A program made the position numbers and the translations under genes. This document shows, piece after piece, positions 14,178 to 43,317 of a stretch of 64,000 nt of DNA. The notes under the pieces are model-generated. The model saw nothing but the letters and a program-made list of their open reading frames with translations. It had not been told where the DNA came from and did no database searches. The stretch is from an uncultured delta proteobacterium (GTDB taxonomy: Bacteria; Myxococcota_A; Polyangia; Polyangiales; B10-G4), in assembly GCA_963727445.1 (NCBI GenBank), contig CAVSGI010000013.1, positions 81,316 to 145,315 of the forward strand, in the 5' to 3' direction. Numbering within the stretch: the stretch's first letter is position 1; each line of letters starts with the position of its first letter.

Positions 14178-14316
14178 GTCGGGAGCTCGGCATCATCGGC
14201 AGCGGCGCGATTGGAATCGGTCGCCGTATGACGGATCGCGCGGCCACCTTCGACGCACCTTTCGGCGCTCTTGTCGGCTCCGATGGGCTGGAACGCTCCG
14301 TGCTGAGACGTGCGGC

Positions 14317-15352: not shown

Positions 15353-15456
15353 GTCGCACCAGCGTCCAAGGACGTTTCACCCCGTTTCAACGGACGCGTT
15401 GGCATCGGCAATTCCTCGTGGCACGCTGGTTGCCTGACGAGAGGGAGGAGAAAACG

Positions 15457-18855: not shown

Positions 18856-19992
18856 TCAGCGCGCCTCGATATGCCGCCCGGCCAGGGCGTCCCGGCGCTT
18901 CTCGATGGTGCTCAAGAGCTCGTCGAAGGAATTGGCGAACTTCTCGACCCCTTCGTCGAGGAGCTTCTGCTCGACCTCGTCGAGAGAGATGCCGAGCGCC
19001 GCGAGCTCGTCGAGCACCGCTTCCGCTTCGTCCGTGCGCTCTTCGAGCGTCGGCCGGACGCGACCGTGATCGCAGAACGCGTCGAGCGTCTTGGGGGGCA
19101 GCGTGTCCACCGTATCCGGCCCGATGAGCGCCTCGACGTAGCGCACGTCCGAAAAGCTCGGATCCTTGGTGCTGGTGCTCGCGAAGAGGATCCGCTGCGG
19201 GCGGGCGCCCGCCTTCGCCAGCTGCGCGTAGCGCTCGCCGGCGCAGCTTCGTCGAAAGTCGCGGTAGATGCGCTTGGCGTTGGCCATCCCGACCTGGCCC
19301 TTCAGGGCCAGGATCTCCTCGCGACGTTCGGGTCGAGCCTCGGCTCGTTCTTCCAACATCGGATCGACCATCACGTCGAATCGGCTGACGAAGATGCTGG
19401 CCACGCTCGCGATCTTCCGCAGGTCGCCGCCGCTGCGGTGGAACGCCTCGATGCCGCCGAGGTAGGCGTCGACGACGCGGGCGTAGGCGCTCGCGCTGAA
19501 CATGAGGGTGACGTTGACGTTGATGCCCTCGGAGAGGAGCCGGCGGATCGCGGGGATGCCCTGGTCGGTGGCAGGCACCTTGATCATGGCGTTGGGGCGG
19601 TCGATGAGGCGAAAGAGACGCCGCGCCTCTTCGACGGTCTTCGTCGTGTCGTGAGCCAGGCGCGGCGAGACCTCGAGGCAGACGAAACCGTCTGCGCCCT
19701 CCGTCTCGTCGTACACCGGGCGGAGCACGTCGGCCGCGCCCTGGATGTCCTCGACGGCCAGGTTCTCGTAGATCGTCAGCGCCTTCTGGACGTTCTTCCG
19801 CACGAGCGCGCGGATCGCGTCTTCGTAGTCGTCGGACTCGGAAAACGCCGCTTCGAAGATGGACGGGTTGGACGTCACGCCACGGAGGCCTTCGTCACGG
19901 AGCTCTTCGAGGCGGCCGCTCGTGAGCAACTGCCGCCGCATGTAGTCGAGCCAGATCGATTGTCCGTATTTCAGCGTATCGGCTGGGCGCAT
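18856..19992 (-). CDS. tal: transaldolase
   Basis: MRPADTLKYGQSIWLDY...GVTSNPSIFE...MIKVPATDQGIPAIRRLLSEGINVNVTLMFS... The internal ATG at 19992 has a GAGGAG RBS; the ORF-track upstream extension is Arg-rich nonsense. Confidence 0.9.
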   Translation of the reverse strand: MRPADTLKYGQSIWLDYMRRQLLTSGRLEELRDEGLRGVTSNPSIFEAAFSESDDYEDAIRALVRKNVQKALTIYENLAVEDIQGAADVLRPVYDETEGADGFVCLEVSPRLAHDTTKTVEEARRLFRLIDRPNAMIKVPATDQGIPAIRRLLSEGINVNVTLMFSASAYARVVDAYLGGIEAFHRSGGDLRKIASVASIFVSRFDVMVDPMLEERAEARPERREEILALKGQVGMANAKRIYRDFRRSCAGERYAQLAKAGARPQRILFASTSTKDPSFSDVRYVEALIGPDTVDTLPPKTLDAFCDHGRVRPTLEERTDEAEAVLDELAALGISLDEVEQKLLDEGVEKFANSFDELLSTIEKRRDALAGRHIEAR

Positions 19993-20009
19993 GGCGCTCT
20001 CCTCTCGGT

Positions 20010-21464
20010 TCATGGATCGTCGTCGTCGGGGTTCGCAGGGGCAGACCAGGGGCCGGATCCGGCGATCACGCGCTCGGCCGCTTCGGGTCCCCAGGTCCCT
20101 GGCTCGTACTCGTGAAGCGGTGGAGGGGCCGAGAGGATGTCGTCGACCACGCGCCACTCGGCTTCGACGCCTCCTTGCAACGCGAAGAGCTCTCCCTGAC
20201 CGGCGAGCGCGTCGCCGAGGAGCCGCTCGTAGGGAAGGAGGTCGCACCGGGGATCACGATGCGCGAGGAGCTCGACCTGTTGGCCGGCCATCTCTTCGCC
20301 GGGGCGCTTCGTGCGCATGCCGAGCGCGATCTCCACTTCGGGACCCACGCGATGCCGGAGGTAGGTGCTGCCGCCGGGGACGTGGTCTCCGAGCGCCGCT
20401 CGTACCGGGCGGCGGAACGTCACCAGCGCCTCGGTCACCGTCGCGGGGAGACGCTTGCCCGCGCGGATGAAGAAGGGCACGTCGGCCCATCGCGCATCGT
20501 CGATGAAGAGCCGAACGGCGCAGAACGTCTCGACGTCGGAGTCGGGAGCTACGCCGGCTTCGTCGCGGTAGCCGCGGTATTGGCCTCGCACCACGTCGTC
20601 GCGCCCGAGGGGCTTGATCGCTCGGATCAGGCGCGCGCGTTCCTCGCGGAGCGATTCGCCACCCGAAGGCGGGTCCATCGCGAGGGTCGCGACCAACTGC
20701 AGCAGATGGTTCTGGAGGACGTCGCGGATCGCCCCCGTCTGATCGTAGAACGCGCCGCGCCCCTCGACGCCGAAGGTCTCGGCCATCGTGATCTGCACGC
20801 TGCGGATGAAGTGTCGATGCCAGATCGGCTCGAAGATGCTGTTCGCGAAGCGGAAGTAGCTGAGGTTCTCGACCGGCTCCTTACCGAGGAAGTGGTCGAT
20901 TCTGTAGACGCGCGACTCCGGAAAGACGTCGAGGATCGTTCGGTTCAGCGCCTCGGCCGAGGCGAGGCTGTTCCCGAAGGGCTTCTCGACGACGAGGCTT
21001 CCGTCGCGGATGCAACCGGTCCGCTCGAGCGACTCGACCACCTGGCCGAAGAGCGCTGGCGGGATGGCCATGTAGAAGAGCGGCCGCTCGGCGTTGCCGA
21101 GCGCTCGGCGCAGCGACTCGAAGGTGCTGATGTCGCGGTAGTCACCGTTCACGTACGCGAGTCGTGAAGCGAGCTCGTCGAAGGTCTCGGGGTCGACCTC
21201 ACCCTCCTCGTGCTCGATACCGTCGCGCGCGCGTGCCGCGAGCTCTTTCACGCTCCAATCGGCCCTCGCCACTCCGATGATGGGAACGCGAAGGCAATCT
21301 CGCCGGGTGAGCCGATAGAGCGCCGGAAAGACCTTCTTGTGTGCGAGGTCGCCGGTCGCACCGAAGAACACGAGCGTGTCTGCCTTGCGCGTGCTCACCT
21401 CTTTCGTCGCTTTTCGCGAGAGACCCTCATGCCCCGGTCGTAGGCACGAAACGGCGCGCGGCAA
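20010..21464 (-). CDS. zwf: glucose-6-phosphate 1-dehydrogenase
   Basis: FGATGDLAHKKVFPALY, EKPFG, RIDHFLGKE and YRGYRDE motifs. A 17-nt gap to tal suggests a zwf-tal operon. The exact start (TTG/GTG) is uncertain. Confidence 0.9.
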   Translation of the reverse strand: MPRAVSCLRPGHEGLSRKATKEVSTRKADTLVFFGATGDLAHKKVFPALYRLTRRDCLRVPIIGVARADWSVKELAARARDGIEHEEGEVDPETFDELASRLAYVNGDYRDISTFESLRRALGNAERPLFYMAIPPALFGQVVESLERTGCIRDGSLVVEKPFGNSLASAEALNRTILDVFPESRVYRIDHFLGKEPVENLSYFRFANSIFEPIWHRHFIRSVQITMAETFGVEGRGAFYDQTGAIRDVLQNHLLQLVATLAMDPPSGGESLREERARLIRAIKPLGRDDVVRGQYRGYRDEAGVAPDSDVETFCAVRLFIDDARWADVPFFIRAGKRLPATVTEALVTFRRPVRAALGDHVPGGSTYLRHRVGPEVEIALGMRTKRPGEEMAGQQVELLAHRDPRCDLLPYERLLGDALAGQGELFALQGGVEAEWRVVDDILSAPPPLHEYEPGTWGPEAAERVIAGSGPWSAPANPDDDDP

Positions 21465-21482
21465 GCGCGCTCCCGCGAGACC

Positions 21483-22313
21483 TCAGGCCTGTCGACCGGG
21501 CGCCCGCGGCAGGACGAGCGCCTCGACGGCGCGTGCAAAACCCTCCTCGGTGTTCGGAGGCGCGACCTCGTCGGCCTGCGCCTTGACGTCATCGTTTGCG
21601 TTCCCCATTGCAATGCTCAGACCGCTCGCCTCGAACATGTCGACGTCGTTGGGCATGTCGCCGAAGGTGGCGATGCGGTCGAGCGGGACCGAAAGAAGGG
21701 TGGAGAGGCGCTCGACCACCGAGCCCTTGTTGGCCTTCGGGTGAGTGATGTCGAGGTAGTAGGGCTGTGAGCGCGAAGCCGAGACCTCCGAGCCCAGCCC
21801 GGCGGCCTCCTTCTCGGTGCGCGCCATGCGGTCGGGGTCGTCGCTGACGCCGACGATCTTCACTGCACGATCGAGCAGGTCGTCCAGCGTCTCGACCACA
21901 GTGGGCTCGAACTCCACGGTGCGCTGCTCCTTGTCAACGTGGGGTGCGTCAGCGTCGCGGACGTACCACTCCTTTCCACGGTAGACCCACACGTCGAGTC
22001 CGCACTCTTCGAGCAGTGAAACGGCGTCGCGCGCGGAGCTCGCCGGAATGACGTGCTGCTCGAGAACGCTCAGCTGGTGATCGACGAACATCCCGCCGTT
22101 GAAGGTGGCGAGGGGGGTGTGGATGGCGAGGGGGTCGATCAGCATCCTCATGCCGCGGGGCGGCCGACCGCTGGTCAGCGCGACTCTCACCCCGGCCTCT
22201 CGGAGGGCCCTCACGGCGCCCTGAGCGCGTTTGGTGAGCTCCTTGTCCGGGGTGAGAAGCGTGCCGTCGACGTCGACGACGGCGAGCTCGATGGGGCTGG
22301 CGTCGTGGTTCAT
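21483..22313 (-). CDS. HAD-superfamily hydrolase, Cof/HAD-IIB type
   Basis: VDVDGTLL motif I, ...TSGRP..., [10 protein letters not shown] motif IV. Confidence 0.8.
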
Positions 22314-22465
22314 TCAGCATGTCCTCTCATTGCCCTCTCATGGGCGCGGAACGGCGCGCCACCAGCCCCCGAGCCGATGCGAGGGCGACAAGCGGAGCTA
22401 GGAGTGCGGCACGGGGCTTTACCCGTTGGCGCGATCCAACGCACCATCCGCGCCTGGAGGCTCAT

Positions 22466-24094
<1,629 letters not shown>

Positions 24095-26786: not shown

Positions 26787-28064
26787 TCAGGCCTCGGGCA
26801 GCTCGACCCCCGACAGAGCCGCATCGAGCGCGCGTTGAATCTCTTGGATGCGCTCGTTCGTCGGCAGCTCGGCGAAGGCGAGCGTCACCTGCTGCGTCTC
26901 CAGCCGTTCCTCGTCGCGCACGGGAAACTGGACCCGGCCCGGTCCGGTCGGCGCTTCGTATCCCTCCAAGAAGGGCGCGAGGGAACCCGGGGCAGAGAGC
27001 ACGTACTCCACCGCGCTGCCGGGTCCCCCGCCCCTGGTGCTGATGTCGTGCAGCGTCAGCGACTCGTCGTAGGGCGCGAGCCGCCACGCGTCGGCTTCGC
27101 GCTCCGTCAGGGCAACGAGCGCCGCATCGAAGCGCTCCGACAGGAGCGGCATGTGGTGCTTCGCGTGGTGCTGCCAGGCCCGGCCGCGACCGCTCGGGCT
27201 CTCGTGGTACGCGGCGATCATGCTGAGCTGCAGGAGGTGGTGCGCTCCCTTTCGCCGCAGGATCGAGGGGTCGATGTCGGGCGGATCGATGGTGATGTCG
27301 ACGTTGGCGTGCTGACCCGTGAGCTCGCGCTTGTAGGCGGGCGCGCTTGCCGCGACGAGCTCGGCGGTGCGCTCCGCCTTCACGTACCGGCCGACCTCGC
27401 CCTCGGAAGCACGCCACCCAAAGGTCGCCGCCGTCAACTCGTCGGGCTGACAATAGAGCTGATGATCGAACTCCGCCCTCTCGTGCACCTCCCCGTCGTG
27501 GACGTGCACCGTCGGAAAGAAGAGCACCCGCGGGTCTCGGCGCGGGAAGACGAACGCCATCGGATGGATCGTCTGCTGTCGCACCCGCCGAAACCAGCTC
27601 CGCTGGGAAGCCAACTTGAACACCGCGAACCCATGGTCGCGATACTGCGGCAGCTGATCCCAGATGTGCGGGTCCAGCTGAAACCGTTCGTCCAGACGAC
27701 CGAAGTCGCCGCGGGTGGGCACGAAGGACGCGTCGAACTCGCCCACCCGATGCACCTCCAGCTTCTTGGACTCGAGCGCGAAGGTCTGCGTGCCGAAGGC
27801 GCTGCGCCCCCGGGAGATCGGCGCCGGGAAGGCGGAGTCCAGGTCTTGGAAGAAGCTCGGATACCCCGAAAGGTCCACGAAGCGCACCGCGTCCTCCGCC
27901 GGCTTCGGCGGAACCGGCAGTGGCAGGATCATCGCGAGGTCCTCCGCGATGGCCACGCTCATGCTGTAGACGAGCGCCTGCTCACCGTCGGGCAAGGAGC
28001 GCGCGAAGATCCGCGTCTTCGCCACGTGTCGCACCGGCCTCGAGAACATGCACATGGTCGACAA
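26787..28064 (-). CDS. hypothetical protein (conserved-looking, no family recognised)
   Basis: 425-aa ORF with protein-like composition. Divergent from the PP2C gene. The start could be M1 or an internal Met. Confidence 0.5.
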   Translation of the reverse strand: MSTMCMFSRPVRHVAKTRIFARSLPDGEQALVYSMSVAIAEDLAMILPLPVPPKPAEDAVRFVDLSGYPSFFQDLDSAFPAPISRGRSAFGTQTFALESKKLEVHRVGEFDASFVPTRGDFGRLDERFQLDPHIWDQLPQYRDHGFAVFKLASQRSWFRRVRQQTIHPMAFVFPRRDPRVLFFPTVHVHDGEVHERAEFDHQLYCQPDELTAATFGWRASEGEVGRYVKAERTAELVAASAPAYKRELTGQHANVDITIDPPDIDPSILRRKGAHHLLQLSMIAAYHESPSGRGRAWQHHAKHHMPLLSERFDAALVALTEREADAWRLAPYDESLTLHDISTRGGGPGSAVEYVLSAPGSLAPFLEGYEAPTGPGRVQFPVRDEERLETQQVTLAFAELPTNERIQEIQRALDAALSGVELPEA

Positions 28065-28192: not shown

Positions 28193-29974
28193 GTGGACAC
28201 GAGGAGACCTTCCGACGTCGCCGCCGAGGCGTGGGCCCGCCACGCGAAGGAGCGCACGGCGCGCGGGGAGCCCCCGCTCGAGGGACGCGACCTCGTGTCG
28301 GCGATCGCCGCGCTGATGCGCGAGACGCCAGGTGCCTACCGTGTAGCGGAGGGGCAGGCGCTCACCGCGATCGATGCCCGCTTTCGCGACGCGGGCGAAG
28401 TCTACGTGCGCCTCGAAGATGGCGCGCTCGAAGCGCAGGATCGTTCGGCGCTCGGCAACGTGATCGAGGAGATCACGCGCGCGTTCCTGCTCGGCGCAGC
28501 GCACGACGCGCCGCTGCCGAGCCCGGAGCAGGTTCTTTGGGTCATCGCGCATGCGTGGTCTCGACGAGGCGCGTCGTCCTTCGAGCTCACGCCCATCCTC
28601 GAGCCGCAGGCCGAGGACGAGGCGCCCGGGCGTTCACCCCTTCCCAGCCGCCGGCGCTTTCGACACGAAGACGGAACGGTCTGGGCCGTCGCGCCCGACG
28701 GCACCGCTCTTCACCTGACCATCTCGCTGCCCGGCGACCCCGATCCCGTCGAGCGCACCCGGGCCTTCGACGACGCGGAGGAGTGCCGCACGGCTCTTCG
28801 GGAGCTCGTGGAGTCGCAGCTCGCCGACGGGTTCGAAGAGGACTGGAGCACTGCCGCTTTCGGGATGACGCGTGCGGGCACAGAGCGCGGCGAGTGCACG
28901 GACCGATTCTTCGCCGACCACGATCGCGGTCTCTTCGTCGTCGCCGATGCATTTGGCGACGTGCAGGCAGCCGATCGGGTGATCATGTGCCTGCGGCGCG
29001 CCGCAGAGACGGCGACCGGCGATGGAGCGGGCGTGCTTCGCAAAGCGATCGAGGAGGCGGATCGCCAGATCGCTGCGGCGCCGGCGGTCCGCGGCATGGG
29101 TGCATCCGTCGTGGCCCTCCTGCTTCGCCGGCCGACGGCCCATCTGGCGTGGGTTCAGCACAGTCGGGCCTATGCGATCCGCGACGACGGCCTCGCGCTC
29201 CTCACACCGGACGACTGGTCCGCGGGTCCGACGGAGTGGGGATTCGACCTCGCGAGCGCCTCCGGAGACGGACTGAGGCTGCCAGAGCCCTGGCCGCTCG
29301 TCGGAAGCGGACAGGTGCGCGTGGAGGAGCGTCGCATCGACGTCGACCGCGGGGGCATGTGGCTTCTGTGCTCCGACGGCCTTCACCGACTCCACCCGCC
29401 CGACGAGCTTCACGCTGTGCTCGCGCACGGGTGCAGCGTTCCTCTGGCCGACGACGAGGCGTGCCTCGCGCGCATGGCGGCCAGGCTCACCTGGTTCAGC
29501 GCGGCGGACGACGATCGCACCGTGCTCCTCGTGGCGGCGAAGACGTTCGCGCCGTCGAGGAAGTTCCCGAAGCGCCTCCTCAGCGGCGTAGCCTGGGTCT
29601 TCTCGATCCCCACGGGCGACGCGCCGGCAGCGACGATCGACGGGCCCGCCGAGGTCGAGCGCGAGCTCCGCGAGCTCTCTCCCGAGCACCTCTCGACGAT
29701 GCGCTCGGTCGTTCTCGAAGAGCCGGAGGTCGACGTGCTTGTCGAGATCTGGTCGCCCGCGGACGAGGAGAGGATCACGACGCGGCTGCGCCTGCGCGCG
29801 AAGGACGACACGCGTTTCACCGGGCTCGAGCTCCTGGAGCGGCTCCACGACGCCATCGCCAGTGCCCAGAGCGCGGGCCGCACCCTCGGCGACCGCCGCT
29901 TCCTCGAAGGTCTCGAGCTCACGCGCCCCGGGCCAGACGGCGTCCCGACCTACGGCGCGATCCTGGGCTCGTGA
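28193..29974 (+). CDS. multidomain PP2C-family Ser/Thr phosphatase with N-terminal WGR-like segment and C-terminal extension
   Basis: PP2C motifs FVVADAFGD, GMGASVVALLL, HSRAYAIRDDGLALLTPDD, LLCSDGL. The N-terminal RFRHEDGTVWAVAPDGTALHLTISLPGD...FDDAEECRTALRELVESQLADGFEE fits the WGR pattern loosely. Confidence 0.7.
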   Translation: MDTRRPSDVAAEAWARHAKERTARGEPPLEGRDLVSAIAALMRETPGAYRVAEGQALTAIDARFRDAGEVYVRLEDGALEAQDRSALGNVIEEITRAFLLGAAHDAPLPSPEQVLWVIAHAWSRRGASSFELTPILEPQAEDEAPGRSPLPSRRRFRHEDGTVWAVAPDGTALHLTISLPGDPDPVERTRAFDDAEECRTALRELVESQLADGFEEDWSTAAFGMTRAGTERGECTDRFFADHDRGLFVVADAFGDVQAADRVIMCLRRAAETATGDGAGVLRKAIEEADRQIAAAPAVRGMGASVVALLLRRPTAHLAWVQHSRAYAIRDDGLALLTPDDWSAGPTEWGFDLASASGDGLRLPEPWPLVGSGQVRVEERRIDVDRGGMWLLCSDGLHRLHPPDELHAVLAHGCSVPLADDEACLARMAARLTWFSAADDDRTVLLVAAKTFAPSRKFPKRLLSGVAWVFSIPTGDAPAATIDGPAEVERELRELSPEHLSTMRSVVLEEPEVDVLVEIWSPADEERITTRLRLRAKDDTRFTGLELLERLHDAIASAQSAGRTLGDRRFLEGLELTRPGPDGVPTYGAILGS

Positions 29975-29977
29975 GGG

Positions 29978-30889
29978 TCAACGCGGCCGCGGGCGTGCGT
30001 CCGCGCGGGCGTAGTGCTTCCCGCATTCACGCTCGCGGCCTCGGACCACCCGGCGACCGCGCAGCTCGCCCCGATACTCGGTGACGATCGTCGCCTGCGA
30101 CTCGTGGCCGTCCTTCTCCCAGTAGACGACGACCCAGTCGCGGGTCTTGTCGAGCCGGTGGGCGAGCGCGGTATTCGAGAAGAGGAGCGTGAAGCCCCAC
30201 CCTTCGGCCTCGGTGTGCCAGATGGGCAGCCACTTGTCGCCTTTGTCGTTGAAGCGCCGCGGCACGATCCTGGGCAAGGCGTCCCGCTCGGCGCGCCGCC
30301 GGTACTCGGCGTCGAGGGCGAGGAGGAGCGAGACCTTCGGCGTGTCGTCCTCGCGCTCGTCATGGGTGCGGGCGGCAGCCACCCGGCGGGCGCGGCGGCG
30401 CGTGGAACGGCCGAGCTGCGCCGCGAGGAGATCGCGGATGGCGTGCGCGCGACGGGGCCCGACGCCGGGGACCTTCTCGAGGCGACCGTCGTGAGCGGCA
30501 ACCTCCAGCTCCTCCAGGGTGTCGACCTCGAGCTCTTCGTGGATCCGCGCGGCGAGGGTCTCGCCGATGCCGGGTAGCGTCATGAAGAGCTCCTCCGGCG
30601 ACACCTCTCCGCGGAGCCGATCGAGGAAGAGCCAGCGCCCTCGATACCCCATCTCCTCGATCGCCGCCGCGATCGAGCGCCCGATCGTCGGCACCGCCAC
30701 CAGCCCCTCCGCGCCGTCCCGGTCGAGGATGGCGATCGCCGGCTCCTCGAGATGGCGAAGCGTCTCCGCCGCATGCTGGTAGGCCCGCATCCGATAGCCA
30801 TCGCCGCCGTGGGCGCGCAACAGCTCCGCCGCCTCCTCGAGCTGGTCGGCGATCTCCTCATTCGTCCAGCGATGCGGCGCCTTCGTCAC
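29978..30889 (-). CDS. helix-hairpin-helix DNA-binding protein (PolX N-terminal 8-kDa/fingers-like) with uncharacterised C-terminal domain
   Basis: NEEIADQLEEAAELLRAHGGDGYRMRAYQHAAETL..., LPGIGETLAARI and LEKVPGVGPRRAHAI HhH motifs. Lies 72 nt downstream of the MVP gene on the same strand. Confidence 0.6.
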   Translation of the reverse strand: MTKAPHRWTNEEIADQLEEAAELLRAHGGDGYRMRAYQHAAETLRHLEEPAIAILDRDGAEGLVAVPTIGRSIAAAIEEMGYRGRWLFLDRLRGEVSPEELFMTLPGIGETLAARIHEELEVDTLEELEVAAHDGRLEKVPGVGPRRAHAIRDLLAAQLGRSTRRRARRVAAARTHDEREDDTPKVSLLLALDAEYRRRAERDALPRIVPRRFNDKGDKWLPIWHTEAEGWGFTLLFSNTALAHRLDKTRDWVVVYWEKDGHESQATIVTEYRGELRGRRVVRGRERECGKHYARADARPRPR

Positions 30890-30961
30890 GCATGACAGAT
30901 AAGCGCGGACGGCCGGAGGGCCAGACGGACCCAGCCCGTCGCCGACCGTCCCTCGCTCCCC

Positions 30962-33040
30962 TCACTCCGCCGCGTCCTCACTCTTCGGCAACGCGGCGAC
31001 CACCGACGCGATCCCCCGCCGGTCGTCATCGCCCCCGACGCTCCCGAGCGCGAGCGGCAGCCGGTCCAGCAGCCGCTCGGCGACGTCGGCGACGCTGTCC
31101 CCGCCCAGGATCGCGAGCGGCGAGAGGTGCATCGACAGATCGCGCGCCAACGACTGATTGCCGAGCGTACGCAGCGTGGCGACAAGCTCGGGCGCGAGCG
31201 CTTCCATCTGCTCCCGGAAGGCCGCCGCTTGGGCATCCAAGCGCGTCTTGTCGATGGCGGCCTCGGCTTCCGACTCGGCGAGGCGCGCGCGGCTCCGAAT
31301 GGAGAAGGCTTCGGCGTCGTGGGTGGCGCGCTCCACCGTCTCGAAGTGATCGAGGTCGAGCTTCGTGCGGGCGGCGGCGAGCTTGGCCTCGCGATCGGCG
31401 CGCTCGAGGTCGACCTGGGCGGCGAAGGTCTTGGCCTTCGCTTCGAAGATCGCGCGGCTCACCTGTTCCGTGAGCTGCTCGTCGCCGAGGCGAAGCGCCT
31501 GCTTCTTTCGGCCGATCTCCGAGACGATCGCCATGCGCTGCGCGCTCGAGAGCAGGCCGTCGACCTCCGGGTCGAGCACCTCGAGGGCGAGCACCTCCAC
31601 GTCGTAAACCCACATCCCGTTCTCTTCGAAGTTGCGACCCTCACGACGCCCTCTTCTGGGGGCCTCGGGCCGGCCCTCTGCGGCATTCTGGCCCTCCTCG
31701 GAGCGCGCACCCAGCACCGCATCGCGCACGATGGAGGTGCCCCGCGTGTAGAAGTCCTCGAGCGACACCCCACGGCCGACGCCGCGGATGATCGAGCTCA
31801 CGTGGTCGCAGAGCAGCCCCACGTAGTCCTTCACGTTGAACCAGCGCTGGGGATCGCCGACGAAGGAGACTCGATAGGAGAGCGCGACCGACAGCTCGAC
31901 GTGGTCCGCGGTCTCGACCGCGATCACGTCCGAGACCTTGTTCCCCTCGATGCGCAAGAAGCACGTCGAGAGCAGCTCGGCGTCGGTCTTGGGGCGGCCG
32001 GTGGAGAGGGTGAGCTGCTCGAGATCCTCGTCGTAGCCGAGGAGGCGCGTTCGCGGTCCCGTCACCACCTCGCGTCGATCCTTGGCGACCACCATCACCG
32101 CGGTCGACGGCGGCACGTACACCGCCGGCACCCGGTCGCTCCGCGCCTCGGCGCCGAAGCGCGCGACCTGCGCTTGGGTGAGCGCGCGCTGAAGCACCGT
32201 CTCCTTCGTCGGGTCGGGCAAGAACGCCGTCGGGCCCTCCACGATGCGCACCGCGCCGGTGCTCCGGTCGCGCACGTAGATGCCTTCGTTTTCGGCGAGG
32301 GGGATCGCCACGACCCGATCGAGCACCACCGTGGACTCGGTCGGGAAGAAGTAGCCCTCGCGGCCCCAGAGGAAGACGTCCTGACCCGAGGCGTAGCTCC
32401 CCGGCGGGAGCTGATCACCCTCCGTCGCCTCGAAGGGCGCGACCACCCGCAGGTGCAGTCCGCAGCTTCGGTCCATGCGCCAGGCTTTGCGGACGTACTG
32501 CCCTTTGTGCGGCACGACCTCGATCCCGCTCTTGGGCACGTAGAAGCTCCGCTCCGTGCCGCGCACGATCATCTCGCTGCCGATGGGCGGCAGCGTGTCG
32601 TCGAAGGTGTCGTCGTAGACCCGCGCCACCAGGAACTCGTCCTGGCGCAGGCTGTGACCGTCCACCACCTGCGCGCGCTGCCCGGGCCAGAGCGGGAACT
32701 CGGTCGGTCCGGGAACCACCACTTTGCGCCCGCTGCGGAGCGACACCGCGGTGTTGGCGCCGGGCGTGGGCGTCAGCGACTCGTCGACCGGCGGGTTTTC
32801 GAGCACCACGTACTGCGCGGAGGTCGCCTCGACGAAGGGGAGCACGCCCTGCCGCACGTCGTCGCGCTCGACAGGCACGAAGCGTCCGTCGCGAAGGAGG
32901 ATCATTCGCTCGGTGTTCGAGAGGCTGATCTTCGTCGGCCCGACGTAGAGGACGATGTGTCCCTTCGTCAGGTCCTGCACGTACGCGTACTCGTTCGGCG
33001 CGACCAGGATGTCTCGCTCGCGGATGTCTCTTTCGGTCAT
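30962..33040 (-). CDS. major vault protein (MVP) homologue
   Basis: GGAGG 6 nt upstream of the ATG at 33040. About 5 MVP-repeat-like units (ILVAPNEYAYVQDLTKGHIVLYVGPTKISL; VAIPLAENEGIYVRDRSTGAVRIVEGPTAFLPDP vs eukaryotic [23 protein letters not shown]). Shoulder segment TGRPKTDAELLSTCFLRIEGNKVSDVIAVETADHVELSVALSYRVSF (vs [46 protein letters not shown]). Long C-terminal coiled coil (cap helix). Confidence 0.8.
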   Translation of the reverse strand: MTERDIRERDILVAPNEYAYVQDLTKGHIVLYVGPTKISLSNTERMILLRDGRFVPVERDDVRQGVLPFVEATSAQYVVLENPPVDESLTPTPGANTAVSLRSGRKVVVPGPTEFPLWPGQRAQVVDGHSLRQDEFLVARVYDDTFDDTLPPIGSEMIVRGTERSFYVPKSGIEVVPHKGQYVRKAWRMDRSCGLHLRVVAPFEATEGDQLPPGSYASGQDVFLWGREGYFFPTESTVVLDRVVAIPLAENEGIYVRDRSTGAVRIVEGPTAFLPDPTKETVLQRALTQAQVARFGAEARSDRVPAVYVPPSTAVMVVAKDRREVVTGPRTRLLGYDEDLEQLTLSTGRPKTDAELLSTCFLRIEGNKVSDVIAVETADHVELSVALSYRVSFVGDPQRWFNVKDYVGLLCDHVSSIIRGVGRGVSLEDFYTRGTSIVRDAVLGARSEEGQNAAEGRPEAPRRGRREGRNFEENGMWVYDVEVLALEVLDPEVDGLLSSAQRMAIVSEIGRKKQALRLGDEQLTEQVSRAIFEAKAKTFAAQVDLERADREAKLAAARTKLDLDHFETVERATHDAEAFSIRSRARLAESEAEAAIDKTRLDAQAAAFREQMEALAPELVATLRTLGNQSLARDLSMHLSPLAILGGDSVADVAERLLDRLPLALGSVGGDDDRRGIASVVAALPKSEDAAE

Positions 33041-33117
33041 CGGCACCTCCAACGGGAGATGCACGTGGCAATGCGCGTGCCGAGCCGATTCCGAGCAGAT
33101 CTCCCAGTGAGCCTGCG

Positions 33118-33144
33118 CCAAATCGGTGCAGTGCACCGATTTGG
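33118..33144. promoter_or_regulatory. perfect 13-nt-arm inverted repeat (CCAAATCGGTGCA-G-TGCACCGATTTGG) 80-105 nt upstream of the MVP start
   Basis: Seen directly in the sequence. No T-tract follows, so an operator-like site for a dimeric regulator is more plausible than an intrinsic terminator. Confidence 0.4.
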
Positions 33145-33163
33145 GGAGCGAACCCGGCTAAAT

Positions 33164-34087
33164 TTAGCGGACCTCGTAGCCGAAGTCGGTGAAGGCAGAC
33201 TTGTCGAGGGTTGTCGGCGGCGTGCGCGTCCCGACCGTGCGGCTCGGGTCCATCAGCGTCGGGCGACCGTCGGAGCGGAGCGACGAGTCCCAGTGCGCAA
33301 GCGATGCGGAGAGCGGCACCGGTCCCCCGTAGGCTGCGACCGCCGCGGCGCCGGTGTACGTCATGGCCGCGTCGTCGACGAGAACCTCGAAGGCGTCGGC
33401 CGTCCCGAAGCCGAGGACGTGACCCATCTCGTGCATCGCGGTCGAATAGAAGTCGTTCATCGCCGGCGGGATGTCGTCTTCGGTCTCAGGCGTGTCGTCG
33501 AAGAACCAGGGCTCGTCGCAGTCGAAGGAGATCCACCCGGTCCACGGCTCGAAGTCCGCGCCCTGATAGCGCTCGATGAGGCGAGCCTGCAGCGCCGGGT
33601 CGCTCACCGTTCCGAGCGCCGCCGTGTTGTTGGACTGCGCGATGCCGCCGTCGACCATGGAACAACCCACGAAGACGTAGAGGTCGTCGATGTCCTCGTC
33701 GATCGTCAGGTTCATCCCCGGATCGGCGGGCCGCTGCGGGTCGCGGGTGAGCAGCGAGGTCCCCGCGGGAACGGTCTCGAAGTCGTCCGCCAGGATCCGC
33801 CCCCACGCAGCCGCCGCGAGCTCGAGTGTCGTGCGCCGCGCGGGGTCGTCGAAGAAGCCGTCGGTGTCGAAGCGATAGTCGAAGACGATGGACACGCCGT
33901 CCACGGGCGCGCCGGTGTCGGCCGACGCATCGGAGGCGCCAGTGTCGGTCGACGCGTCCGCCGCCGCCCCATCGGCGTCCCCCGCCGCATCCGCTGGCGA
34001 CGCATCGAAAGAAGCGTCCGTGAAGACGCGCCCGTCGTCACCGCACGCGAGCGAAAAGGAGAGCAAGAGGAGTAGAGACCAGCGCAT
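33164..34087 (-). CDS. secreted zinc metalloprotease lipoprotein (zincin, HExxH)
   Basis: MRWSLLLLLSFSLAC lipobox. FYSTAMHEMGHVLGFG zinc-binding motif. Acidic Ala/Asp-rich linker. Confidence 0.7.
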   Translation of the reverse strand: MRWSLLLLLSFSLACGDDGRVFTDASFDASPADAAGDADGAAADASTDTGASDASADTGAPVDGVSIVFDYRFDTDGFFDDPARRTTLELAAAAWGRILADDFETVPAGTSLLTRDPQRPADPGMNLTIDEDIDDLYVFVGCSMVDGGIAQSNNTAALGTVSDPALQARLIERYQGADFEPWTGWISFDCDEPWFFDDTPETEDDIPPAMNDFYSTAMHEMGHVLGFGTADAFEVLVDDAAMTYTGAAAVAAYGGPVPLSASLAHWDSSLRSDGRPTLMDPSRTVGTRTPPTTLDKSAFTDFGYEVR

Positions 34088-41272: not shown

Positions 41273-43174
41273 TCAGGGGGCGGAGCGCTGATCGGCGCCG
41301 ATGTCCCATGGCCCACTGGTGGGCCTGAGCTCTTCGTCGATGTCGCGCGCGAGCGCCGGCTCGTCGGTGAGAGCGCGACCGGCACCGATGGCGGGGGAGC
41401 CATCCGGAAGATGGAGGTCGGTGGTGAACATCCCCGAGGAGACGTTCTGGATGGAGTCGGCGCCGGGAGCCGTATCGTCATCGGACATGTTGTTGGAGCT
41501 GGCCATGACGTCGAAGTGGCCGCGTCGCTGGTTCTCCTCGCTGCAGCGCATGTCGGCCGGTGTCGATCCGTCGATCGCCCCGGACAGGAAGAACGCCCCC
41601 GCCTGCAGCGGGTTCATGCACTCACCATCCCGGCCGTAGCGTATCCCGTAGGCGATCACGTTGCGGAGCGTCATGACGGATGCCCTGCCGTCGTACATCC
41701 CGACGCAGCCCAGGTACTCCGAATACATGTGCTTCTTGCAGCCGACGACGGTGGTGTTCTCCACGAAGACACGTGTGTCGTTCACTCGGTTGACGAGGAT
41801 CCCGGCGCGCGCGACGTCGTGGATGAAGGTGTTGCGGATCGTCAACGTGGCGCCGGGCTGGTCGAGGGAGATGCCGTTTGCGCCCACTTCGGGATCGGGG
41901 CCGCCGGTCTCGTAGCCCTCGTCTTCGATCAGCAGCGACTCGATCGTCACGTCACTGGCGAGCACGTGGATGGCGTCTGCGTCCTGTCCCTCGTCGGCCC
42001 AGCCGGTGATGCTCAGCCACTGGATCCGCGTGAAATCGTCGCGAATTTCGATCGCGTGAACGTACTCGGGCGCAGCCGGATCTGGCGGATCCGGGATCAC
42101 CTGGACGCCTGCGCCCCCGACGCCGTGATGTCGATGACCGGGAGCCGCGGTGAGCATGAGGTAGTGGGCGATGTCGGTGGTCGATCCATCGATGATCACC
42201 TCGTCCCGAAGGGGCGCGTCTGCATAGCAGACGCCGACCTCCAGCGTACGTCTCGTGGACAGGTCGCCCCCCTGCCCCTCTTCCCAGTCGGGCAGGCTGG
42301 TGTATGCGCGGCGAATCTCGAAGGGCGCGTCCATGGCGCTCGCGCTCGTCGGCGGCTGCTGAAGCACCAGCCGCCGATCGTCGACGCGACCCAGGACGAA
42401 GAGCTCCTCGGTCGAGGGCGGAAAGACGATCTGATCGCCCGTGCCTACGTCTGGAGGCAGATCGACCGTGAAGGTGACGTGAGTCGGCTCCACCACATCG
42501 ATGGTGGCACCGGTGTCCGTCGCGACCGGATCGAAGCGCGCCCCGATCGATCGGAACACGACGCGCGCCGAGTCACACTCCTCCGCCGGCGCGCAGGGCC
42601 AGTCGGAAGGCCAATCCGGAATCGTCCAGTCCACACCGGCATCGGGCATCCCGGCGTCCACGCCCGGGCATGCAATGGGCTCGGAGCGGCTCACCCCGGC
42701 TTCGTCGCTCGAGGGCTCGACGCAAGCCGGCGCGCACTCACCCGCGACGCAGGTGGTCCGGTCGCCGCAATCGAGCCGGTCGAGGCATCCCGCCTCGAAC
42801 CGCAGCCACACGTGCAGGCGCTGTCCCTCGCGGAAAGCGCCAATGGCGCGCTGCTCGGCGAAAGCCGCTCCCGCGTCGTCCAACAACTCGCCCAGGATCT
42901 GAAAGCCCGCGGTAGCACCCCCGCTCCCCGGCTGCAGCGGCTGAGTGAAAGGAAACGAAACACGGGCATCCGGTCCCGTCACGCTCTCGGTCTGCACCTC
43001 CGGCGCTCCACCGTCACGGACCACGGTCACCCTCACCGAGGCGGCACGGGCGCGCGACGCATCGTCGGCATCGAAATGGACGAGCACCTGCGTGCCTACG
43101 TCGTCGCTGCACCCTCCGAGCGGAGAGGAGAGCACCAAGACGAGCGCGAGGGCGCGGAGGACGCACGACCGCAT
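41273..43174 (-). CDS. lipoprotein with parallel beta-helix (pectate-lyase-like) domain
   Basis: MRSCVLRALALVLVLSSPLGGC lipobox. The C-terminal half carries beta-helix repeats (NTFIHDVARAGILVNRVNDTRVFVENTTVVG...). Confidence 0.65.
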   Translation of the reverse strand: MRSCVLRALALVLVLSSPLGGCSDDVGTQVLVHFDADDASRARAASVRVTVVRDGGAPEVQTESVTGPDARVSFPFTQPLQPGSGGATAGFQILGELLDDAGAAFAEQRAIGAFREGQRLHVWLRFEAGCLDRLDCGDRTTCVAGECAPACVEPSSDEAGVSRSEPIACPGVDAGMPDAGVDWTIPDWPSDWPCAPAEECDSARVVFRSIGARFDPVATDTGATIDVVEPTHVTFTVDLPPDVGTGDQIVFPPSTEELFVLGRVDDRRLVLQQPPTSASAMDAPFEIRRAYTSLPDWEEGQGGDLSTRRTLEVGVCYADAPLRDEVIIDGSTTDIAHYLMLTAAPGHRHHGVGGAGVQVIPDPPDPAAPEYVHAIEIRDDFTRIQWLSITGWADEGQDADAIHVLASDVTIESLLIEDEGYETGGPDPEVGANGISLDQPGATLTIRNTFIHDVARAGILVNRVNDTRVFVENTTVVGCKKHMYSEYLGCVGMYDGRASVMTLRNVIAYGIRYGRDGECMNPLQAGAFFLSGAIDGSTPADMRCSEENQRRGHFDVMASSNNMSDDDTAPGADSIQNVSSGMFTTDLHLPDGSPAIGAGRALTDEPALARDIDEELRPTSGPWDIGADQRSAP

Positions 43175-43317
43175 GCGACGAGGTTAGAGGGAACTCATCT
43201 CGGTGTGTAGTCGCGACGGCGAGGCTTCGACTCGGTCGATCGATCAAACGCAGCCGCTGACGGCGGAAATCACAGCAGCTTCGCAAAGCGGCGCTTTCGC
43301 GTTAGAAAGCGCCGGCC

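Follow-up and report, generated by a model that had tools for sequence, protein, structure and literature searches.

A stand-alone, short-form major vault protein gene with a predicted sigma-54 promoter and NtrC-type enhancer in an uncultured member of the Myxococcota

From our analysis of a 64,000-nt stretch of DNA (~69% GC) of an uncultured delta proteobacterium of the Polyangiales (contig CAVSGI010000013.1, positions 81,316 to 145,315; the whole stretch is called the window hereafter), a gene that encodes a major vault protein (MVP) can best be read, with good but not full confidence, as a stand-alone gene for a short-form MVP under a sigma-54 promoter and an NtrC-type enhancer, the product of which is likely to form a cage or ring. 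A promoter of the sigma-54 type gives no transcription until an ATP-dependent enhancer-binding protein (EBP) works on it. An earlier note, made from the letters of this DNA, had described a bacterial MVP homologue in a two-gene unit with a helix-hairpin-helix (HhH) DNA-binding protein, preceded by an operator-like palindrome; all the descriptive elements of that note were located at the positions it gave. The features of the gene and of the region before it, in window coordinates, are the following.

30962-33040, minus strand: MVP open reading frame (ORF), 692 amino acids (aa) from the ATG at 33040
33046-33050, minus strand: Shine-Dalgarno (SD) sequence, GGAGG as read from the letters, with 5 nt between it and the ATG at 33040
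33067-33082, minus strand: putative sigma-54-type promoter CGGCACG-CGCA-TTGCC (CGGCACGCGCATTGCC), 10 of 12 positions matching TGGCACG-N4-TTGCW
33115-33129, minus strand: promoter-proximal dyad GCACC-GATTT-GGCGC, an exact GCNCC-N5-GGNGC, with its centre 40 nt upstream of the -24 box
33133-33147, minus strand: promoter-distal dyad TCCCC-AAATC-GGTGC, with one mismatch and its centre 58 nt upstream of the -24 box
33118-33144, no strand: 27-nt perfect palindrome CCAAATCGGTGCA-C-TGCACCGATTTGG, with 13-nt arms, a 1-nt centre and 100% complementarity

The window protein is a genuine MVP homologue of short form. Three Pfam models for vault domains match above their curated cut-offs: MVP_shoulder (PF11978) covers residues 367-490 along nearly its full length (E=1.2e-25, 90 bits against a cut-off of 25), and Vault_3 (E=2e-8, 34.6 bits against 28.8) and Vault_4 (E=5e-5, 23.9 bits against 22.9) are found as well; NCBIfam holds no MVP model. 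In a phmmer search of PDB chains, only MVP was matched (human, rat and rabbit, E=1e-35 to 1e-31), with query residues 145-616 aligned onto MVP residues 288-761 and the alignment reaching into the cap helix. The motifs GRPK and ETADH...(L)(A/S)Y fall inside this alignment, the latter being the shoulder motif noticed earlier (IETADH...LAY). An AlphaFold2 model, built on 38 homologues with a mean predicted local distance difference test score (pLDDT) of 73.9, contains ~6-7 antiparallel beta-repeat units (residues 10-341), an alpha/beta shoulder (residues 367-488), a continuous 125-residue helix (491-615) and shorter helices after it, a second one at 618-644 among them. The twelve best Foldseek matches of this model in the PDB are all vault shells (E=2e-31 to 1e-25 over ~700-750 columns), followed by the murine R1-R7 crystal structures (E=4e-12); the global template-modelling (TM) scores to vault shells reach no more than 0.3-0.4, a low value that comes from a different bend in the elongated monomer model. 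The architecture of repeats, shoulder and cap helix proposed in the earlier note is borne out by all four of these approaches, including the comparison with solved vault shells, and of its "about five" beta-repeats the repeats themselves stand, with a count of ~6-7 fitting the model better. The start codon lies at 33040: its strong ribosome-binding site, GGAGG at 33050-33046, is there as claimed, and an alternative GTG start (724 aa), which falls inside the palindrome, was ruled out because the 38 homologues all begin with M-x-ERD-x-RERDILV.

Homologues of this kind are rare among bacteria, in line with the earlier note: an exhaustive HMMER scan of 1.84 billion representatives returned only 1,168 clusters at E<=0.001 and 506 at E<=1e-30. 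The best matches listed in that scan are mostly of 800-950 aa, against ~680-720 aa for the form seen here, which makes the short form a distinct clade. A word-indexed search gave 427 MVP relatives, the named ones being mostly from Haliangiales, Kofleriaceae, Labilithrix, Myxococcota and unclassified Deltaproteobacteria, and a genome scan added MVP homologues from a few metagenome-assembled genomes (MAGs) of Planctomycetota and Acidobacteriota. Homologues at 43-87% identity come from Polyangiales, Haliangiales, Myxococcaceae, Archangiaceae and some Planctomycetota/Acidobacteriota. The C-terminal segment PLAILGG is conserved in the bacterial family (38 homologues).

To place the gene in its context, we compared 57 species-level genome loci carrying MVP, with flanks of up to 6 kb (58 loci in the clustering of flanking ORFs). 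Two features of the window bear on the comparison.

29978-30889, minus strand: HhH ORF, 303 aa, adjoining MVP and not part of the MVP system
30907-30951, minus strand: GC-rich interrupted stem-loop in the 72-nt gap between MVP and HhH, a possible weak terminator without a U-tract

MVP is a stand-alone gene without a conserved protein partner, and HhH is its chance neighbour, adjacent to it only in this genome; both statements follow from the lack of a syntenic HhH gene and of any shared flanking family. The HhH gene does lie 72 nt after MVP on the same strand, as the earlier note had it, and neither a sigma-70-like or sigma-54-like promoter nor a canonical terminator was called in the gap, so that read-through from MVP into HhH is possible in this genome. 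These are the points that speak for a functional operon in which the HhH protein would be a nucleic-acid-binding cargo or accessory of a bacterial vault, a proposal that the comparative evidence makes scarcely credible. HhH was found next to MVP in none of the 57 loci (tblastn with the full protein, the N half and the C half), and it is absent beside the two closest metagenomic MVP relatives: the one at 82% identity has DUF6265 upstream and an unrelated 650-aa gene downstream, and the one at 87% identity has DUF4185 upstream and a convergent 168-aa gene downstream. Conversely, four loci of the HhH family that were examined carry no MVP gene and have mutually unrelated contexts, and the HhH family reaches several phyla with more than 7,000 matches, against 427 for MVP in the same kind of search. 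A GC-rich hairpin also follows the MVP stop codon; the RNA of 30880-30975 has a folding energy of -49.2 kcal/mol, which 11 of 200 shuffles also reached (z=-1.9). HhH was accordingly rejected as a vault partner on the grounds of the 57 loci, the nearest relatives and the four HhH loci without MVP. The two-gene unit with HhH as cargo or RNA partner thus fails on the very synteny by which the earlier note had proposed to judge it, and the conservation of the pair across Myxococcota, which it had suggested checking, is seen in none of the other MVP loci compared. Any co-transcription of the two genes by read-through here would be incidental. The other neighbours fare no better: the metalloprotease gene, the PP2C-like gene and the 425-aa ORF of the window (described below) occur near MVP in 0 of the 57 loci, and in the all-against-all clustering of flanking ORFs only Ser/Thr kinases, which are ubiquitous in Myxococcota, are common to more than ~7 of the 58 loci.

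What recurs beside MVP is DNA sequence upstream of the gene. In the window, the putative promoter has the -24 GG at 33081/33080 and the -12 GC at 33069/33068 and ends 27 nt before the ATG, and the predicted transcription start at ~33056 would leave a 16-nt leader containing the SD sequence. We scanned the sense strand up to 300 nt from the MVP start in the 57 loci for matches at 10 or more of the 12 positions, with GG and GC fixed, and found the box upstream of MVP in 35 of them. The antisense strand of these regions had it in 0/57, and it turned up in 1.5% of random windows of 300 nt and in 0.9% of shuffles. Another 12 loci hold candidates matching at 9 of 12 positions, 10 of which lie at the same distances. 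The positions that the scan did not force also follow the consensus (C in 47/48, A in 41/48, C in 40/48, G in 32/48, T in 33/48 and W in 44/48). By blastn, the 57 upstream regions sort into 51 groups without alignment to one another; 31 of the 51 keep the box, so that its conservation stands out from a diverged background and does not stem from recent common descent. No box candidate was found in ten loci, namely seven labelled Planctomycetota, Acidobacteriota or Clostridia, the Gemmataceae locus L021 and the Myxococcota loci L034 and L040.

The boxes occur in two geometries. In the first class, to which the window belongs, the box ends 27-39 nt before the ATG with a GGAG SD sequence between them. 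In the second class (L015, L019, L020, L026, L032, L042, L047, L049 and L050; also L010, L011 and L051), every box ends exactly 13 nt before the ATG and no SD sequence is present; this implies, as far as the motif can tell, near-leaderless transcripts starting where the sigma-54 geometry predicts. Scans of 29700-33400 for sigma-70 promoters and canonical terminators gave nothing relevant. There are five sigma-54-like matches in the 64-kb window, none of which precedes HhH, and among the five only the MVP promoter also has the dyads considered below. Two of the others are TGGAACGCTCCGTGCT at 14289-14304 (plus strand), which is intergenic, and TGGCACGCTGGTTGCC at 15419-15434 (plus strand), an 11/12 match inside an ORF. 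Neither is accompanied by GCnCC-N5-GGnGC dyads; each may have arisen by chance or may serve another activator.

Upstream of the box, the enriched k-mers (CGTTTCGG, GAAACGG, GGCGCA and CGCTCC) can be combined into one dyad, GCnCC-N5-GGnGC, the spacer of which is rich in T. Across 47 MVP upstream regions, the exact dyad is present in 20 (against 1.6% of controls, P=2e-22), and with at most one mismatch and an A/T-rich spacer it is present in 34 (against 5.7% of controls, P=4e-31). Two or more non-overlapping dyads were found in 25 of the 47 regions, against 2.5% of controls (P=5e-26), and the distances from dyad centre to box cluster at ~39, 49, 59 and 70 nt (R=0.67 at 10.5 bp, Rayleigh P ~6e-10). 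In the window, the distal dyad is an inverted near-copy of the proximal one, with 13 of 15 positions identical. Taken together, the predicted arrangement of promoter and enhancer is conserved upstream of MVP across Myxococcota.

This layout closely resembles the sites of the NtrC family. The E. coli NtrC site is TGCACC-N5-GGTGCA, and the half-sites of enteric NtrC, GCACC/GGTGC, are identical to those of the window. For NmpR, an NtrC-like regulator of Myxococcus, experiments have shown 5-N5-5 dyads at two sites separated by a few nt, together with a sigma-54 box and oligomerisation of the EBP (PMC11841059). The window shares with such sites (M. xanthus NmpR, GCGCA-N5-TGCGC; PMC11841059) the 5-N5-5 symmetry and the pair of near sites, which precede a -24/-12 box by tens of nt; the MVP dyads likewise lie on a fixed helical face. 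They differ in that the window's dyads stand at a rather short distance from the promoter (40 and 58 nt, counted from the -24 box), the cognate activator is not encoded nearby, and binding and activation are predictions here. NmpR itself was rejected as the activator, its site being different from the MVP dyad, the consensus of which is GCnCC-GTTTY-GGnGC.

The palindrome that first drew attention to this region lies 77 nt from the MVP ATG, close to the ~80 nt given in the earlier note, and it arises where the two inverted dyads face each other, from the inner half and the spacer of each. It very probably is a protein-binding regulatory site and, judging from the motifs, part of the sigma-54 enhancer. 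It is unique in the window with none expected in shuffles; with its half-site not enriched either, a dispersed repeat was ruled out. Perfect palindromes of 8 bp or more are almost absent upstream of MVP in 56 loci and never have the window's sequence; an initial reading of the palindrome as not conserved was superseded once the degenerate dyad was recognised. In the Gemmataceae MAG locus L021, which has no sigma-54 box, a 74-nt perfect palindrome with 37-nt arms and no spacer lies ~223 nt upstream of MVP, and may be some repeat, a terminator or a regulatory device of another kind. The gene on the far side of the window's palindrome is also of concern here.

33164-34087, minus strand (the same strand as MVP): upstream metalloprotease ORF, M10/LGF-type, with a lipoprotein-like signal and the stop codon TAA

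The palindrome starts 19 nt past this TAA, on the same strand, and as RNA it would form a 12-13-bp perfect hairpin (a 66-nt segment at -28.9 kcal/mol, z=-3.4). High-GC bacteria often use terminators without a U-tract. Conceivably, then, the palindrome is only a terminator or mRNA-stabilising hairpin of the metalloprotease gene with no role in MVP expression, which we regard as unlikely: no U-tract follows the hairpin and the terminator scan makes no call, the palindrome is rather A/T-rich (~54% GC in a genome of 70% GC), unlike a GC-rich terminator stem, and the dyad that its half-sites match is conserved, in helical phase with the sigma-54 box, across dozens of loci with differing upstream genes. 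The two roles are compatible, but a hairpin would leave the conservation across species relative to the promoter unexplained. A perfect palindrome ~80 nt before a start codon also looks like an operator, and a classical repressor (e.g., of the TetR or LacI type) acting on a sigma-70 promoter of MVP could be imagined. We hold this for highly improbable, as no sigma-70-like promoter was found in 29700-33400, no regulator gene adjoins MVP, the palindrome lies upstream of the conserved -24/-12 box without overlapping it, and tandem 5-N5-5 dyads phased 38-72 nt from the box are the typical geometry of EBP activators. Of the term "operator-like", therefore, the sense of a regulatory site is kept and that of a repressor operator is not, the dyads, their phasing and the sigma-54 box pointing to an activator site.

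Under sigma-54 control with an NtrC-type enhancer, RNA polymerase carrying sigma-54 would bind the -24/-12 box upstream of MVP and would remain inactive until a signal-activated, trans-encoded activator of the NtrC family bound the two dyads as a dimer of dimers or a hexamer, oligomerised and opened the promoter. Transcription would start ~16 nt before the ATG, and the expression of MVP would be dependent on a signal and not constitutive. That the short-form MVP gene is, across Myxococcota, the dedicated target of one conserved NtrC-family EBP acting via sigma-54, and the particle accordingly induced by a signal, is a wider proposal to which we give slightly better than even chances. Starvation, development and stress are the usual outputs of sigma-54 and EBPs in Myxococcota.

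By homology with MVP and the SPFH cages, the protein would self-assemble through its shoulder and cap helix into a large cytoplasmic homo-oligomer in the form of a ring or dome. The absence of any hydrophobic segment (maximum Kyte-Doolittle value 1.12) and the net charge of -23 suggest that the window protein is probably soluble and cytoplasmic. Of the first 45 residues, 31 are invariant across the 38 homologues (52-84% identity), and no other stretch of the protein is as conserved. Despite this, residues 7-45 (window 32906-33022, minus strand) have a pLDDT of 40-64. The invariant N-terminus is probably an inter-subunit interface missed by the monomer model, perhaps a waist. In eukaryotic vaults, the N-terminal repeat is the waist contact between the two halves (PMC12280208), and by that analogy the invariance offers the best hint, if an indirect one, of a comparable half-to-half interface through which two MVP halves may be joined. 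The conserved C-terminal segment PLAILGG is the other indirect sign of assembly into a hollow, two-halved cage.

Alternatively, the protein may form no closed, two-halved vault at all and may build a single ring or dome, like HflK/C, flotillin or prohibitin, that caps a partner or a surface. After the MVP structures, the best Foldseek matches are indeed the SPFH cages flotillin, prohibitin, HflK/C, erlin and stomatin (E=2e-7 to 1e-4), in which, as in the window protein, a long helix comes after a shoulder-like alpha/beta domain and bundles to form a dome. There are only ~6-7 repeats, and the preprint of 2019 places Myxococcales proteins in a clade with a band-7-like domain apart from the clade of cyanobacterial and eukaryotic MVP. 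However, SPFH cage proteins (HflK/C, flotillin, prohibitin, stomatin) are membrane-anchored and have no vault repeats, whereas the window protein has the repeats and lacks the transmembrane or hydrophobic anchor of most SPFH proteins, and the strongest conservation lies in the very repeat that makes the eukaryotic waist contact (PMC12280208), which fits a half-to-half interface. We therefore consider the single ring or dome a possibility, though the less likely one.

Several points weigh against a signal-controlled, cage-forming MVP as set out here. The window's box matches at only 10 of 12 positions, with C for T before the GG and C for W after the GC, and sigma-54 use, the start site and inducibility are predictions made from motifs. 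An EBP gene, recognised by the GAFTGA signature, is absent from the window and was found nearby in only 1 of the 58 loci, so that the activator would have to act in trans. Some selection bias is possible, since the dyad was first spotted by eye and then tested, and since the phasing took the best match of each locus; the loci are also not fully independent phylogenetically, though 51 of the 57 upstream regions are mutually unalignable. The palindrome, by its position just past the stop codon of the upstream gene, could also serve that gene as an RNA hairpin or terminator. The monomer model is of moderate confidence, its pLDDT being below 65 for the first ~60 residues, and cage assembly is a suggestion drawn from homology and this model. 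Finally, the window protein keeps little of human MVP's NAD+/ADP-ribose pocket. From the pocket residues given in PMC12280208 (R437, R504, K506, R507, P508, H509, R511, L517, D521, F522, W545, P565 and K573), an alignment anchored on phmmer shows R504, K506 and L517 kept, R507/P508/H509/R511 replaced by T/D/A/L and D521/F522 by N/K, and W545 falling in a 4-residue deletion, with R437, P565 and K573 left out of the mapping; the consensus of the bacterial family at the pocket loop is GRPKSDExLL. The pocket is a property of human MVP and does not define the family, and its replacement means that the function may differ from that of the eukaryotic vault.

The HhH protein belongs to a family of its own. 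It has HHH_8 and HHH_5 domains, and its residues 10-167 match residues 3-160 of Thermus PolX in the PDB, with the profile homology ending at residue ~163; the earlier description of a PolX-N-terminal-like HhH protein with an uncharacterised C-terminal domain is confirmed by Pfam and by this match. With bacterial PolX (Thermus 3AU2 and Deinococcus 2W9M) it shares the 8-kDa domain and the HhH fingers. It differs in having no recognisable palm catalytic motif, thumb or PHP domain within its 303 aa, and in carrying instead a conserved alpha/beta domain of ~115 residues. The C-terminal ~125-128 residues match nothing in Pfam and no PDB sequence. The alpha/beta domain itself (~residues 186-298; 29978-30364, minus strand) is strongly conserved, with P210, R212, F213, N214, W220, P222, H225, S238, N239, H244, D251, W252 and E271 invariant along with the motif R-V-x-R-G-R-E at residues 280-286. 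Foldseek aligns the whole model to Pol beta/PolX over 260-300 columns at a TM-score of only 0.24-0.28; as a lead from the model, the domain might be a degenerate palm. The relatives are ~300-aa proteins conserved over their full length, the 120 best-scoring being at 52-100% identity, and they extend to, e.g., Gemmatimonadota. The family can be described as a widespread, stand-alone "mini-PolX without a polymerase", and the protein probably binds DNA ends or gaps and is not a polymerase.

Other parts of the window give the setting of these genes. One further neighbour lies beyond HhH.

28193-29974, plus strand: PP2C/SpoIIE-like phosphatase ORF, 593 aa, convergent to the HhH ORF

The stop codons of this ORF and of HhH are 3 nt apart (29972-29980), which leaves no space for separate terminators. 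A pentose-phosphate/glycolysis cluster at 18856-24094 (transaldolase, glucose-6-phosphate dehydrogenase, HAD hydrolase and phosphoglucose isomerase) is an ordinary housekeeping setting and shows that the MVP gene sits in the core chromosome and not in an obvious island. The ORFs at 26787-28064 (minus strand, 425 aa) and 41273-43183 (minus strand, 636 aa) have a good coding bias in GC at third codon positions and no Pfam match; the former also has no match in NCBIfam or PADLOC. A PADLOC scan for defence systems gave no match for MVP, HhH and three neighbours. Among 15 ORFs scanned within ~12 kb of the MVP locus there are no genes for PARP, TROVE/TEP1, NACHT or WD40 proteins, in agreement with the earlier note, which had seen neither vPARP nor TEP1 nearby. 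The small RNAs that it had suggested looking for in the locus did not appear as any Rfam family, vault RNA and Y RNA included, in the whole 64-kb window, and no tRNAs were found there either.

Compared with eukaryotic MVP (rat, human and rabbit; PDB 4V60, 9BW5 and 9Z4W), the window protein has the same order of domains, with N-terminal beta-repeats, then an SPFH-like shoulder and a cap helix of great length, and finally a cap segment at the C-terminus. The two have in common the shoulder motifs GRPK and ETADH, with the likeness reaching E=1e-35 in sequence and E=2e-31 in fold, and the N-terminal repeat of the window protein appears, on a reading of its sequence, to resemble R1. The eukaryotic proteins are longer (861-893 aa with 9 repeats, against 692 aa with ~6-7), the identity is ~23%, and their basic NAD+/ADP-ribose "keyhole" pocket is faced by mostly acidic or neutral residues in the window protein. 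The eukaryotic vault includes vPARP, TEP1 and vault RNA, none of which is near the window's MVP; the latter is instead under predicted bacterial sigma-54 control, and its assembly is anticipated from sequence and model.

Bacterial MVPs as such are not new. Homologues in Myxococcales (e.g., Enhygromyxa), Cytophagales and Oscillatoriales were described by Sokolskyi (2019; bioRxiv 10.1101/872010, citing Shaik 2013) and phage MVPs in bioRxiv 10.1101/2023.11.10.566534, and the window protein belongs to the same family as the described bacterial MVPs, in the Myxococcota (chemotrophic-bacteria) clade. The novelty of a bacterial MVP that the earlier note implied was thus overstated, the homologues having been described in 2013/2019. 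Both preprints deal with protein sequence, structure and phylogeny, and give no operon, promoter, sigma factor or neighbourhood; a 2026 preprint on the "RNA vault" as an NADase concerns eukaryotic vaults only. In the literature we found no experimental study of bacterial MVPs, which agrees with their having been called functionally unstudied, and nothing linking sigma-54 or developmental transcriptomes to myxobacterial MVP. A conserved control of myxobacterial MVP by sigma-54 and an EBP hence appears to be unreported, and what is new here is the candidate sigma-54 box, the candidate NtrC-type enhancer and the absence of a conserved partner gene, the MVP protein itself being already known.

To our knowledge, the function of the vault has been unresolved since its discovery, and up to now the homologues in bacteria have been dealt with as sequences only. 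The significance of the present finding is moderate because the MVP protein itself is not new; it removes the HhH protein as a lead to a nucleic-acid partner and puts a testable cis-regulatory lead in its place. If the proposed control is true, the expression of MVP would be switched by a specific signal-transduction pathway, and the 15-bp dyad would be a handle for the regulator, the sensor, the inducing condition and the co-regulated genes, possibly including real cargo or accessories encoded elsewhere. This would permit the study of a vault-like cage in tractable relatives such as Archangium, Haliangium and Enhygromyxa, and would be the first way to approach the vault's ancestral function by experiment.

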